Below, piece by piece: positions 6,545 to 59,543 of a DNA stretch of 64,000 bases. How positions within the stretch are numbered: the stretch's first letter is position 1; the number at the start of each line of letters is the position of its first letter. The position numbers were made by a program, and so were the translations under genes. Source of the stretch: a virus. The DNA lies in the IMG/VR virus record IMGVR_UViG_3300031962_000001, positions 28,915 to 92,914 of that record. The stretch is one strand, 5' to 3'. The notes under the pieces are model-generated. The model was not told where the DNA came from, did no database searches, and worked only from the letters and a program-made list of their open reading frames with translations.

Positions 6545-7134
6545 TGACTAGGAAACAATTAGCAGCTTGCAGAAGAAACGCGAAAATAGCGCACTCTCTT
6601 CCAAGAACCAAGAAACAATTAGAAGCGCTCAGGAGAAATTCTAAGATAGGCTGCGCTATGCCTAGAACTGAAAGGCAACTGAAGTCTCTAGCCAAAGCTA
6701 GAAAAGTGGGCCAGAAAGTGTTGAGCACTATGTCTAGGACTTGGTTGAAGGGAAAGAATAGGTATAAATATCCCAATAGGCTCAAAGCAGATCTCAAAAA
6801 TATACAGATTGCCAACTCTCAACCTAAAACTGCAAAGCAACGTGCTACTTCTAGAGAGATGGTTAAGTATGCCCACGAAGGTTTGAAGAAGAGAAGAAAA
6901 GAGATCAATGGCATCTGTGAACTGTGCGGAGTTCCATGCTTCACTTATGGAGATCACTGTCATAAGACTGGAAAGAAGCGTGGAAAAGTCTGCCTCAGTT
7001 GCAACTTGGTTCTTGGAATGTTCAAAGACGATATAGGTCGATTCAAGAAGGCAATTAAATACCTTGAGAAATATAAAGTCTTGAGGTTTCCCAGACTGCC
7101 ACAAAGATTTCCTAGATTGAAAGTGGCAGCATAG
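6541..7134 (+). CDS. Free-standing endonuclease VII-like (HNH-type) homing endonuclease
   Basis: CELC...DHCHKTGKKRGKVCLSCNLVLG; basic N-terminal repeats; two RFPR at C-terminus. Confidence 0.8.
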   Translation: MMTRKQLAACRRNAKIAHSLPRTKKQLEALRRNSKIGCAMPRTERQLKSLAKARKVGQKVLSTMSRTWLKGKNRYKYPNRLKADLKNIQIANSQPKTAKQRATSREMVKYAHEGLKKRRKEINGICELCGVPCFTYGDHCHKTGKKRGKVCLSCNLVLGMFKDDIGRFKKAIKYLEKYKVLRFPRLPQRFPRLKVAA

Positions 7135-7157
7135 ATTCTATAAAAGGGAGGAGCCCA

Positions 7158-7529
7158 ATGTGGCTTTCTAACTTTGAGAACGGCACTTCCATCTCTTCCA
7201 AAAACGTATTCTGGACACAGTTGAAGGAAAGAAGCAATGGAGCCAAGATGACCGGGCTCCAGCTCACCAGTTCTCTGTTTCCAAATCTGTTTCTGGAACT
7301 TTCTGATCTGGACCGATACTATTTCGTGACTGAAGCCAGTGCTTTCATAGCGGAAGGAGTATTTCGCAACGAAGTGCTGGCTGAAATCATTGGTGGACAC
7401 AATCTAGAACTGGGAATCGGTATTGAAATCCGGCTAGAGTACACGGGCAGCGCGAAGTCCAGAATCTACAAGCTTGAACGTTATAAGTATTCGAAGGATA
7501 TCTTGGTAGAGGGTACTAGAAGGCACTAA
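7158..7529 (+). CDS. Hypothetical protein
   Basis: GGAGG RBS; TAATG coupling to next gene. Confidence 0.6.
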   Translation: MWLSNFENGTSISSKNVFWTQLKERSNGAKMTGLQLTSSLFPNLFLELSDLDRYYFVTEASAFIAEGVFRNEVLAEIIGGHNLELGIGIEIRLEYTGSAKSRIYKLERYKYSKDILVEGTRRH

Positions 7530-56371: not shown

Positions 56372-56379
56372 AGGACGCA

Positions 56380-56904
56380 ATGGGCGGATATTATGGATTG
56401 CCGATTTTCAAACAGCACGAACTGACTAGCGTGAAGCGACTGCGGGAAGGCGCTATGCACAAGCTCCCCGACGGCAGCGGATTCTTCACTGCTACTATCC
56501 AAACGCCAAAGACAAAGGAAGGCGGACCCGGCTCAGGACCGCAAGGCGGACGGCATCCAAAGGCGAAATCTAAAAAAGTCTCTGACGCACGACAGTCGGC
56601 TCTAGATCTTAAGCAGAACAAGAAACATCTTGTTGCTGCAGACAAGCACGACAGAGCAGAAAATGAGCATTATGAGAAGATGAAGGAAGAAGAACAGTAC
56701 GATCACGACAGAGCCGCTAACCTGCATGACAGAGCTTCGACTCTACACTCTGAAGCTTCTGAAGCGCATCGTGCAGCGATGGAAGATCCTGGGAATCGTG
56801 GAAAACATGGAAAGGCTGAAACTGCTTCTTGGCGTGCTTGGAACGCATCTACTCATGCAGACAACGCATCTGATGATGCTCAAGATGAAGATTGGGAGAA
56901 ATAA
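56380..56904 (+). CDS. Putative head-associated protein (GGPGSG motif, His/Ala-rich helices)
   Basis: KEGGPGSG; TAATG-coupled to portal. Confidence 0.55.
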   Translation: MGGYYGLPIFKQHELTSVKRLREGAMHKLPDGSGFFTATIQTPKTKEGGPGSGPQGGRHPKAKSKKVSDARQSALDLKQNKKHLVAADKHDRAENEHYEKMKEEEQYDHDRAANLHDRASTLHSEASEAHRAAMEDPGNRGKHGKAETASWRAWNASTHADNASDDAQDEDWEK

Positions 56905-59543
56905 TGGCAACCTCAGTCAACAATCCTACGAACGCGCCTCCCATCAAGGGTCAGGCGCTCCCGTTCATTCGCAAGGAGTCCGGCGCAATTACCGCCAACG
57001 CGAACAAAGACGCGTTCAACGACGGTAAGGACTACAAGGACGAAGGCGCTCCTCTGCTGACTACAAACTACGGCATCAAGCCTATAGCGCCATATGGCTT
57101 CATCACCAATCCGCTGGTCTTGCCGCCGACTCGAGAGGAAATGGAAGCGTTGTCCCATCCCGACGAGTCCAGTCAGACGCAGATACAATATCTGAAGGAA
57201 GCCGTCGTGATGGACATAGACGCCAAGATAATCGTGTCCACAATGGAGCAGATGAAGCGCGGCGTCTTCAGAGAAGCGCACTATCCTACGATGCTGGACT
57301 ATATCGCCAGTCCACACTACAAGAAGCTCCGAGAAGCCAAGGCAGTGGCTGAGCGTCTGGTGGGGATTGGAAACAAAACTCGTCTGCGTGAAAGCGACGC
57401 AACGATAGCGGGCGTCAGGCTCAATCCACGCCTGGTCTACGCCATCAACAAGGTGGACAAGACGGTTATCCAAGGACTCCAGAAAAAGGGATTCGACAAG
57501 GAACTCAAGCGCCTGCAAGAGTCCTTCGCTGGCAGCGGAGTGCGTCTCAAGGAAGACAGCTTCACAATGGAGCCGAACTGGGACGGTGGCATGTCCGGCT
57601 CCCTAGCTGGTAGACAGCCAGACTTTACTCCTCTTATCGCTGGCCCGTTCAACAAGCAGTTATATTGGTTTGACTATTTGGACATGCACTCCAAATGCTT
57701 CGAGGCGAGCACGCACAATCCGGTTGCAAAGCGCATCATCAAGGTCATAACGCAATTCGTCCTAGGCAAGGGAGTAAAGCTCACAGTCCAGAGAGCAATC
57801 CGTAAGAGCGACAGGCTCAAAGCGAAGCAAGACACTGCGCAGCTCGCTTCCAAATTAGTTGGCACAGGAAAGCAGCCTCCTATTACGATACAAGATTTCA
57901 CTGAGCAATGCCAATCTGAATTGGACCAGCACTGGACGCAGAACCAGTTGCATATTCGCAGCAAGCAAATTCTCAAGGACCTGCTGACTTTCGGAGAGCA
58001 GTTCATTCGCTACTTCGACGCGCCTTGGGGACTCAAGATTCGCCAGATAGACCCGTCCACTGTCTGGGAAGTAGTGACCGATCCTGACGATTGCGAAAAC
58101 GAGTTCTACCTCCATCAGCAATATCCAACTCGTTACCAGTGGTATGTAGACCTGCCAGTCCCAACGATCAAATTCATTATTCGCCAAGTTCCGGCTGCGC
58201 TCTACTATCACATGAAAATCAATTCCACTTCTGGCGAAGTGCGAGGCAGATCAGAGCTGTTCGCAATCCTTGGTTGGTTGAAGCGCTTGAAGGAATGGGC
58301 ATCCGATCGCGTCGTGAGAAACAAGATGGCCAATCTCTTTATTCTCGACGTGGCGGTAGAGGGAGACTTAGGAGCTGTGCAGGCTGTTCAACAACAGTTC
58401 AGCACTCCGCCCACTCCGGGCTCCTTCTTCGTGCATAACAAGGCGGCAGAACTCCAAGGAGTCAACGTAGAAATCGGAGCCAACGATGCGTCTGGAGACT
58501 GGGAAATCTTCATGACATTGGCCGCGATGGGAGCTGGTCTGTCTAAAGAATATCTTGGCATGTCTACAGACGGTGGGAAGGCTGGCGCATTGGTCGGCAC
58601 CGAGCCGGACATCAAATCGTTCGAGGACTACCAAGAGCTGATGGAACAGTTCTTCCTGCAAGACGCTCAGCGACTGTTCCAGAGGATCAAAGAGCGTGGT
58701 CAGCTCCCACAAGATGTAGAAGTAACGATAGAAACTACGTATCCAAGTCTAGCGGAGGAAAACAGATCTGAGAAGCTGAAGGACTTCGCGTTCGGTGAAT
58801 CTATGTCTTGGTGGTCTCATCGCAGGACTGCTACTGCCGCCGCTAAAGAAATGCAGATGACTAGCTACAATTACGACGAAGAGCAGAAGCAGATAGCTAT
58901 GGAAGATGCAATGAAACAAGTCTTGCTCAACACAGCCTACCAGCAGGTGACGAAGGGCGTAGACAATTCTAAGTCTGCCACTGGGGGTGGTGGTACAAGC
59001 TCTGGAGGTAGCGGCAAGGGTGCAAGTGGTATGGGGATGGGCAGACTTCCCGGTGCTACCTCCAGCAGCAAACAGTCAGACAGTACGGACGCTCTGACTG
59101 GAGACCAGGGCTATTTGACAGAGGCAGAAGATGAAGACGACGAAGGACTTTCGGCGACTGCGCCAGGAACGGCGTTCCCAGCGAGAGGCTCAACAATCGC
59201 AACTACTCACAATGCTTCAATGGGAGATAAGAGGAATCCTTGGCGAGGCACAGAGGTTGACGCAAGCTCTGGAAGACGGGACCATTACAGAGGACAGGAT
59301 CCTAGAGATATTGCTTCTGGTATTAAGCGTGAAGCAACGAATCTCAGATATGAACGTAGGGCCATCGGGCGGAAAAATGACCGTGTGCAAACTCCTGATA
59401 AAAGACGAGATCAGAAGAGCATGGACCGGGGCGAAATCATCGCTGATGCCAGACAAGCGCTCAGCTCCGGAAATCTAGGCCACGAGTCCAAGAAAAAGAT
59501 ACGCCGATTCCCCCGCGAAGCAGACGACCGGAGGTCCCTTTGA
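56904..59543 (+). CDS. Portal protein with long N- and C-terminal extensions
   Basis: NP.AKRII....FVLG.G, GE.FI, IDP..V..V.TDP.D, RGRSEL..I..WL; position after terminase. Confidence 0.8.
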   Translation: MATSVNNPTNAPPIKGQALPFIRKESGAITANANKDAFNDGKDYKDEGAPLLTTNYGIKPIAPYGFITNPLVLPPTREEMEALSHPDESSQTQIQYLKEAVVMDIDAKIIVSTMEQMKRGVFREAHYPTMLDYIASPHYKKLREAKAVAERLVGIGNKTRLRESDATIAGVRLNPRLVYAINKVDKTVIQGLQKKGFDKELKRLQESFAGSGVRLKEDSFTMEPNWDGGMSGSLAGRQPDFTPLIAGPFNKQLYWFDYLDMHSKCFEASTHNPVAKRIIKVITQFVLGKGVKLTVQRAIRKSDRLKAKQDTAQLASKLVGTGKQPPITIQDFTEQCQSELDQHWTQNQLHIRSKQILKDLLTFGEQFIRYFDAPWGLKIRQIDPSTVWEVVTDPDDCENEFYLHQQYPTRYQWYVDLPVPTIKFIIRQVPAALYYHMKINSTSGEVRGRSELFAILGWLKRLKEWASDRVVRNKMANLFILDVAVEGDLGAVQAVQQQFSTPPTPGSFFVHNKAAELQGVNVEIGANDASGDWEIFMTLAAMGAGLSKEYLGMSTDGGKAGALVGTEPDIKSFEDYQELMEQFFLQDAQRLFQRIKERGQLPQDVEVTIETTYPSLAEENRSEKLKDFAFGESMSWWSHRRTATAAAKEMQMTSYNYDEEQKQIAMEDAMKQVLLNTAYQQVTKGVDNSKSATGGGGTSSGGSGKGASGMGMGRLPGATSSSKQSDSTDALTGDQGYLTEAEDEDDEGLSATAPGTAFPARGSTIATTHNASMGDKRNPWRGTEVDASSGRRDHYRGQDPRDIASGIKREATNLRYERRAIGRKNDRVQTPDKRRDQKSMDRGEIIADARQALSSGNLGHESKKKIRRFPREADDRRSL

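Follow-up and report, generated by a model that had tools for sequence, protein, structure and literature searches.

A portable R-[FYW]-P-R peptide motif on unrelated DNA-transaction proteins of an uncultured phage and its relatives

Here we describe a four-residue peptide motif, R-[FYW]-P-R, referred to below as the RFPR tag, that recurs on 13 unrelated proteins encoded in a 64,000-nucleotide stretch of phage DNA (positions 28,915 to 92,914 of IMG/VR record IMGVR_UViG_3300031962_000001). This stretch, here called the window, is the final 64 kb of a 92,914-bp single virus record, and CheckV estimates the completeness of this ~93-kb record of an uncultured phage at approximately 68%. The evidence establishes R-[FYW]-P-R as a portable short linear motif that is selected at the peptide level and is carried by replication, recombination, DNA modification and packaging proteins, as the first-pass annotation of the window had proposed. 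That annotation knew of no such motif, and in agreement with this, our literature searches returned no paper that mentions or describes it. Overall, we regard the RFPR tag as part of a real and undescribed motif system.

A six-frame scan of the window for R[FY]PR gave 25 matches on the + strand and 3 on the − strand. From the letters alone, 20 copies of RFPR and 3 copies of RYPR on 13 proteins had been reported, and the scan returned exactly this set, with all 23 coordinates corresponding to in-frame copies; the two remaining + strand matches (18469 and 30513), absent from the first list, are not in the coding frame. Were the frame irrelevant, at least 23 of 25 matches would fall into the coding frame with a probability of only 1.5e-9. 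In the 121-open reading frame (ORF) proteome (29.6k amino acids), RFPR was seen 17 times, with 0.21 copies expected, and is, jointly with KKKK, the commonest 4-mer, while its near-variants are scarce (KFPR, RWPR and RLPR 0 copies each; RFPK and RIPR 1 each). Furthermore, 300 within-protein shuffles yielded a mean of 0.44 copies of RFPR plus RYPR and a maximum of 4, compared with the 23 copies observed. Synonymous codons are used freely: over 85 tags from seven genomes, all six Arg codons, both Phe codons and all four Pro codons are found. The coding-frame bias, this spread of codons and the conservation at orthologous sites described below all uphold the earlier view that the codons vary freely and that selection acts on the peptide and not on the DNA.

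The same 85 tags define the shape of the motif. RFPR accounts for 72 of them, RYPR for 11 and RWPR for 2, and the consensus including the flanks is [KR][KR][IVP][RK]-R-[FYW]-P-R-[LET]. Position -4 and position -3 are K or R, position -2 is I, V or P (53/85), position -1 is R, K, L or M, and at position +1 the commonest residues are L (24), E (13) and T (8). As orthologues and tandem copies were counted alongside each other, the 85 tags are not independent, and their number overstates the independent evidence. The hydrophobic preference at position -2, at the Phe and at position +1 corresponds to a spacing of i, i+3 and i+6, which would line these residues up along a single side of a peptide in polyproline-II or extended conformation, leaving the other sides to the arginines. 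To a modest degree, this favours a folded protein with a binding groove as the partner of the tag. With regard to placement, 30 tags lie within 40 residues of the N-terminus, 31 lie within 40 residues of the C-terminus and 24 are internal, and in 6 of the 85 cases the tag forms the last four residues of the protein.

No close cultured relative of the source phage was found in the phage database. However, protein-guided scans of IMG/VR and JGI contigs yielded 11 relatives with large terminase (TerL) sequences 52 to 65% identical to that of the window, and the RFPR DNA pattern is strongly strand biased in all 11. Matches on the coding and the other strand numbered, for instance, 19 versus 3, 11 versus 0, 11 versus 2, 17 versus 7 and 14 versus 3, and in further relatives 8 versus 2, 7 versus 1 and 10 versus 2, compared with 0 to 4 matches for a reversed-pattern control. 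Homologues also occur on larger contigs of the clade (85 to 207 kb). Four large relatives were taken whole, and a joint clustering was made of their proteins and the window proteins. Identity at orthologous sites is 0.91 in the tag columns and 0.37 in the 15 columns on either side, and the position of the tag is kept in orthologues that are only 35 to 57% identical overall and that differ in their codons. The tag is present in 6/6 orthologues in the linker of an FtsK-like ATPase, in 6/6 in a Zn-ribbon protein, in 6/6 at the N-terminus of a RecA-like recombinase (at about residues 4 to 7), in 5/5 at the N-terminus of the small terminase-like protein (TerS), in 4/5 at the C-terminus of a peptidase, in 3/4 at the C-terminus of a DNA kinase-family protein and in 3/3 at the N-terminus of a 216-amino-acid protein. 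At the aligned site in the portal C-terminal tail, it is kept in 4/5; all five portals of the ortholog group are tagged, and in G005 the tag lies elsewhere in the protein.

The relatives also show gain and loss of the tag among homologues. The L003 portal and the L001 kinase are without it, the glycosyltransferase-like orthologue in L001 has a single C-terminal tag, and in the window, the second tag of TerS arose by local duplication of eight codons. Conversely, G001, G005 and G009 contain extra carriers, namely, a PIG-L-like enzyme, a P-loop kinase, an AP2/HNH endonuclease and three endonuclease VII-like genes. The last are scattered paralogues in G001 (L006 to L011; reverse-complement positions 20665-21153, 85682-86191 and 98239-98985), each of which has RFPR at residue 81, and therefore the tag sits on mobile endonuclease genes too. 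Small proteins with a tag-core-tag layout also recur, in G001 (50 amino acids), G005 and G008, and their cores have no sequence similarity. Every relative with usable sequence (TerL identity of at least 52%) carries tags; the two tagless records, G012 (14.7 kb, TerL 32%) and L002 (12 kb), are too distant or too short.

The carriers in the window are all encoded on the + strand, and six of them, including the glycosyltransferase-like protein, have no family match in Pfam or PHROGs. All tags are terminal or in a linker and outside any matched Pfam domain, which agrees with the original description of the copies as sitting in tails and linkers; four are followed directly by a stop codon (15471, 34911, 36214 and 44710), again as first described. 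Among the carriers with recognizable domains, an endonuclease VII-like protein (6541..7134; Pfam Endonuclease_7 at residues 120-177) has RFPR at 7084-7095 and 7105-7116 (residues 182 and 189). An FtsK/SpoIIIE-family ATPase (22189..23619; Pfam FtsK_SpoIIIE and FtsK_alpha) is tagged at 22357-22368 (residue 57), in the linker that joins an N-terminal Zn ribbon to the alpha domain, which starts at residue 63. The protein encoded at 35275..36228 had been named an aGPT-Pplase; this name gave way to 5-hydroxymethyldeoxyuridine (5-hmdU) DNA kinase helical-domain protein, as its residues 21-289 match Pfam HMUDK_hel with an E value of 1.8e-62, and its tag at 36214-36225 (residue 314) abuts the stop codon. 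The RecA-like recombinase (42441..43559; Pfam RecA) is tagged at 42516-42527, and orthologue alignments suggest that translation probably begins at the ATG at 42507, so that the protein would open with M-P-L-RFPR. A putative phage metallopeptidase (44728..45210; Pfam PhageMetallopep at residues 51-139) has its tag at 45181-45192 (residue 152), and the portal protein (56892..59543; Pfam Phage_portal_2 at residues 271-500) has one in its C-terminal tail at 59505-59516 (residue 872). TerS (51767..52477) matches Pfam HTH_Tnp_1_2, HTH_7 and Sf6_terminase over residues 46-105, and its two tags, at 51785 and 51809 (residues 7 and 15), lie just ahead of the helix-turn-helix (HTH) at residues 46-100. 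The large terminase near it is split into an ATPase ORF (52410-53654) and a nuclease ORF (55685-56356; PHROG 38, profile positions 564-706); between them lies a 499-amino-acid gene with phosphoheptose-isomerase/PNK-like matches, and the corresponding gap in L003 holds an HNH-like gene.

The other carriers are less easily named. A 108-amino-acid protein (15159..15485) without a Pfam or PHROG match ends in four tags, RFPR at 15393 and 15414 and RYPR at 15438 and 15471, the last of which abuts the stop codon. A basic protein of 216 amino acids (17903..18553) has an N-terminal tag at 17933-17944. The second of two glycosyltransferase-like paralogues (33534..34925), named so by the first-pass annotation and without a Pfam or PHROG match, has C-terminal tags at 34893 and 34911. 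A mini-protein (44455..44724) has an RFPR at each end (44512 and 44710), and orthologue alignments suggest that it starts at the ATG at 44497 (M-K-K-I-M-RFPR) and is approximately 75 amino acids long. The remaining two carriers are the Zn-ribbon protein (29538..30392), with RQPR at 29709, RYPR at 29730 and RFPR at 29748, and an ORF that overlaps its gene in another frame (29791..30213) and has three terminal RFPR copies at 30136, 30160 and 30184.

These two long overlapping ORFs lie directly upstream of a gene for a sigma-like factor, and both their overlap and the second-frame ORF are kept in the window, L001, L004 and L005, where the latter ends in one to three RFPR copies (one or two in the relatives). 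No other carrier is as conserved as the Zn-ribbon protein. It has three RxPR units in a row between a small beta-barrel and the Zn ribbon, and in the alignment of 24 homologues, the R and P of these units are invariant or nearly so. An AlphaFold2 (AF2) model based on this alignment is confident for the barrel (residues 1-58) and the ribbon (80-136), with the array disordered and not docked on its own barrel; fold searches with the barrel returned only generic KOW, Tudor, CPH and SH3-type small barrels (Z scores of 7 to 7.8). The gene is part of a cassette conserved in the window, L001, L004 and L005, with the order FtsK-like ATPase, small uracil-DNA glycosylase (UDG)-family protein, SWIM-like zinc protein, HU-family protein, Zn-ribbon protein, sigma-like factor and blocky protein. 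The UDG-superfamily protein (24068-24478, 136 amino acids), whose gene always follows directly after the FtsK-like gene, is 78% identical between the window and G001, whereas most proteins are 40 to 55% identical. The HU-family protein (27680-28405) has a conserved 130-residue N-terminal extension with the best-kept segment G-A-K-D-D-V-E-L-A-N-x-F-x-x-L-G-I-D-Y; the HU-type protein TF1 of phage SPO1 prefers DNA containing 5-hydroxymethyluracil. The block protein (30814-32163) has a net charge of -76, with four acidic blocks that alternate with P-K5-H-K blocks, and a gp32-like single-stranded DNA-binding protein (SSB) has acidic blocks, lysine blocks and a conserved D-L-E-x-x-Y-K-K-M segment in its tail. 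P-K5-H-K blocks beside long acidic runs thus occur at the C-terminus of the HU-like protein (28375-28405), in the block protein and in the SSB tail (42100-42327), a second shared low-complexity "grammar" on three proteins that are likely abundant DNA-coating or scaffold proteins. Outside the window, a 1369-amino-acid protein (G000:C1:4965-9074) contains many ~45-residue repeats (PTLATLPLLSW...FQQIE), which account for several of the commonest 4-mers of the proteome. A scan of the window for tRNA genes and Rfam families gave no match.

The distribution of the tag among the genes of the window is not even. No carrier was found among 38 virion, tail or glycan ORFs, compared with 12 carriers among 69 other ORFs (Fisher P = 0.007; the overlapping ORF at 29791-30213, the thirteenth carrier, was not part of this ORF set). 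Among the neighbours without a tag are a UDG-PolA fusion, DnaB-like and SF2 helicases, a primase, a UvsY-like protein, the gp32-like SSB, FEN, SbcCD, two sigma-like factors and the split large terminase. Because neighbours such as the primase, the helicases, the SSB and FEN carry none, the tag marks accessory enzymes on the DNA polymer and not the core replisome.

We consider a shared docking or localization tag, read by one protein, to be the most likely mechanism, with a probability of roughly one half. According to this proposal, phages of the clade would attach the motif to disordered ends and linkers of proteins acting on the phage DNA polymer, namely, the recombinase, the junction resolvase, homing endonucleases, the FtsK-type translocase, thymidine-hypermodification enzymes, the peptidase, TerS and the portal. 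All copies would be recognized by one common receptor, phage or host encoded, that gathers these unrelated proteins at the site of phage DNA replication, modification and packaging, and the small proteins with two to four copies may act as cross-linkers or competitors. Docking to a single hub was already the idea of the first-pass annotation, whose candidate hubs were the charge-block protein, the SSB tail, the large RNA and a host protein. Three points weigh against this proposal. First, the searches described below found no receptor, and as the record is only approximately 68% complete, the gene for a phage-encoded receptor may lie in the stretch beyond it. Second, the carriers of known function all bind DNA, and basic tails and tandem copies would equally be expected of an arm that binds DNA directly. 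Third, the polymerase, the DnaB-like helicase, the primase, the gp32-like SSB, the UvsY-like protein and FEN are never tagged, and an address for a "replication factory" does not obviously predict an untagged core replisome.

Co-folding, AF2 models, pattern scans and phyletic comparison did not identify the reader. One four-chain co-fold, combining a 40-residue tail with three RFPR copies, the gp32-like SSB core, the Cys-module and C-domain of the block protein and the SH3-like barrel of the Zn-ribbon protein, gave an ipSAE of 0.00 and is no evidence either way. An AF2 model of the FtsK-like protein, built from a five-sequence alignment, was uninformative (mean predicted local distance difference test score of 52). 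Sliding-clamp families PF00712, PF09116 and PF00705 had no match among the phage genes of the 92.9-kb record, which is approximately 68% complete. A scan of viral contigs for the DNA pattern of tandem RFPRL found only unrelated 24-bp tandem repeats, and a scan of prokaryote contigs found repeats of the same kind, without similarity to window proteins and without a clue to the host; a search with the SSB alignment against 185k prokaryote genomes found nothing. The N-terminal domain of the HU-like protein was considered as a reader and downgraded, as its conserved segment resembles, by eye only, a SAP/HeH DNA-binding motif. The collections contain no tagless sister lineage with enough sequence, and therefore phyletic profiling for a co-occurring reader gene is impossible; the genes for the HU/SAP-like protein, the Zn-ribbon protein, the sigma-like factor and the block protein are found in each of the four relatives inspected.

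Direct DNA binding, which the first-pass annotation did not consider, fits the data nearly as well as a protein hub and is the main and a serious rival. Here, the tag would be a nucleic-acid-binding arm, similar to AT-hooks or GRPR arms, that keeps enzymes on DNA without any protein reader, possibly with a preference for hypermodified thymidine as the address of "self" DNA. We hold this only tentatively, and the evidence is divided. The carriers of known function all act on DNA, the tags sit within K/R-rich tails, the net charge of the carriers ranges from +10 to +42, and tandem copies, found in 6 of the 13 carriers, are spaced 6 to 11 residues apart. In TerS, the tags directly precede an HTH matching the resolvase-type HTH_7, a layout that resembles that of Hin, in which a GRPR arm is followed by an HTH. 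Additionally, genes of the hmdU pathway are present in all relatives, the lineage-specific carriers are mostly DNA-modification enzymes, and a DNA-binding arm would agree with the failure to find a reader. However, the strict requirement for Phe, Tyr or Trp followed by Pro, together with I/V at position -2 and L at position +1, is unusual for groove-binding arms; AT-hooks require Gly at the corresponding place; and Lys almost never replaces Arg. Moreover, tagged DNA-modification enzymes must act before the DNA is modified, and the restriction of the tag to one small clade is contrary to what generic DNA binding would predict.

It is also conceivable, although we consider it rather doubtful, that RFPR is one half of a phage addressing system for a membraneless "DNA factory" condensate or that it reads hypermodified thymidine. 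In the first version, the HU/SAP-like protein, the gp32-like SSB and the block protein would build a charge-patterned condensate on the phage DNA, into which the RFPR-tagged enzymes would partition, by analogy with R-motif clients that enter the nucleolus via nucleophosmin. In the second, the tag would read hypermodified thymidine and mark "self" DNA for recombination, resolution and packaging.

It is improbable in our view that an enzyme recognizes the tag, be it as a degron, as a protease site or as a target for modification of arginine or proline, and that the carriers are co-regulated in this way. Degrons are typically terminal, F-P-R is the classical P3-P1 preference of Arg-specific serine proteases, and the phage encodes a tagged metallopeptidase and many transferases. 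Nevertheless, where the tag forms the final residues of a protein, cleavage after Arg would remove nothing, multivalent binding is a better fit for the tandem, bivalent and internal linker copies, and no result ties a protease or a modifying enzyme to the tag. Finally, a translated DNA or RNA signal at gene boundaries (a promoter, an operator or a translational element) or an origin by chance or composition is excluded: although many copies lie within approximately 60 nucleotides of gene starts or ends, nearly all + strand matches fall into the coding frame, the third base of the codons is free to vary, with six Arg codons in use, shuffles never give more than four copies, orthologous sites keep the peptide when the codons differ, FtsK and the Zn-ribbon protein have internal copies, and the distances to the next start vary.

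If a shared docking tag is indeed at work, one four-residue peptide links recombination, junction resolution, DNA translocation, base hypermodification and packaging across a clade of uncultured soil and peat phages in which a clamp is not detectable. Hub-and-motif wiring, as exemplified by clamp-binding motifs and SSB tails, organizes DNA replication and repair in all cells, and to our knowledge, very few such systems are known in phages. The identity of the reader, whether a new hub protein, the scaffold of a condensate or modified DNA, would reveal how phages of this clade coordinate their DNA metabolism. Furthermore, the tag would be a minimal portable peptide with which cargo can be sent to phage DNA, and its sequence would serve as a signature by which members of the system can be recognized in metagenomes.

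With regard to known systems, two targeting signals are readily told apart from the RFPR tag. The Tat signal consists of S/T-R-R-x-F-L-K followed by an h-region, whereas the Phe of the tag comes directly after Arg, no hydrophobic stretch follows the N-terminal tags of TerS, RecA and the 17903..18553 protein, and C-terminal copies are common. The capsid targeting sequence of phage T4 is located at the N-terminus of proteins packaged in the head; the tags are found at N-termini, at C-termini and internally (30/31/24), and their carriers are replication, recombination and modification enzymes, with no tag in the virion module (0/38 ORFs). The signals read by coupling ATPases of the FtsK/SpoIIIE type, such as the Arg-rich C-terminal tails read by VirD4 in type IV secretion and the signals read by EccC in type VII secretion, are more similar, as they are short, often Arg-rich and terminal on unrelated substrates, and an FtsK-family ATPase is conserved in every relative. 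However, the FtsK-like protein is itself tagged, copies of the tag are also N-terminal and internal, and no secretion apparatus or membrane segments were seen.

Similar to the R-motifs (R-x(0-2)-R) of nucleolar clients that interact with the acidic tracts of nucleophosmin (NPM1), RFPR is an RxxR unit that is often multivalent, and it co-occurs with an acidic-block protein in the window, L001, L004 and L005. By this analogy, the block protein and the similarly tailed SSB could be candidates for the role of the NPM1 scaffold; the R-motifs, unlike the tag, have no fixed Phe-Pro. The AT-hooks and GRPR arms of Hin, Tc1/mariner transposases and homeodomains (N-terminal arms) are, like the tag, small auxiliary Arg/Pro motifs in a basic context and are often present in tandem. 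Their core is G-R-P or G-R-P-R, whereas the residue before Pro in the tag is F, Y or W in 85/85 cases and never G, and the flanks of the tag, unlike those of these arms, prefer hydrophobic residues.

The clamp-binding peptides include QL[SD]LF for the bacterial beta-clamp, the C-termini of T4 gp43, gp55 and gp33 that bind gp45, the PCNA-interacting peptide (PIP) box and the AlkB homologue 2 PCNA-interacting motif (APIM), [KR]-[FYW]-[LIVA]-[LIVA]-[KR], and in T4, the clamp motif also ties transcription factors to replication. Like these peptides, the tag is very short, sits on disordered ends of many unrelated DNA-transaction proteins, is sometimes duplicated and is gained and lost freely, and it shares a basic-aromatic-x-basic flavour with APIM. 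It differs from QL[SD]LF, QLxLxL, the PIP box and APIM in having neither Gln nor an aliphatic pair after the aromatic residue. In addition, the polymerase, the classic client of a clamp, is untagged here, whereas the portal and TerS are tagged, and no phage clamp was detected in the record. Taken together, the RFPR tag shows the full set of defining features of none of the clamp motifs, AT-hook/GRPR arms, nucleophosmin R-motifs and FtsK-read signals, and its logic is closest to that of the clamp-binding motifs, though its sequence does not fit theirs.

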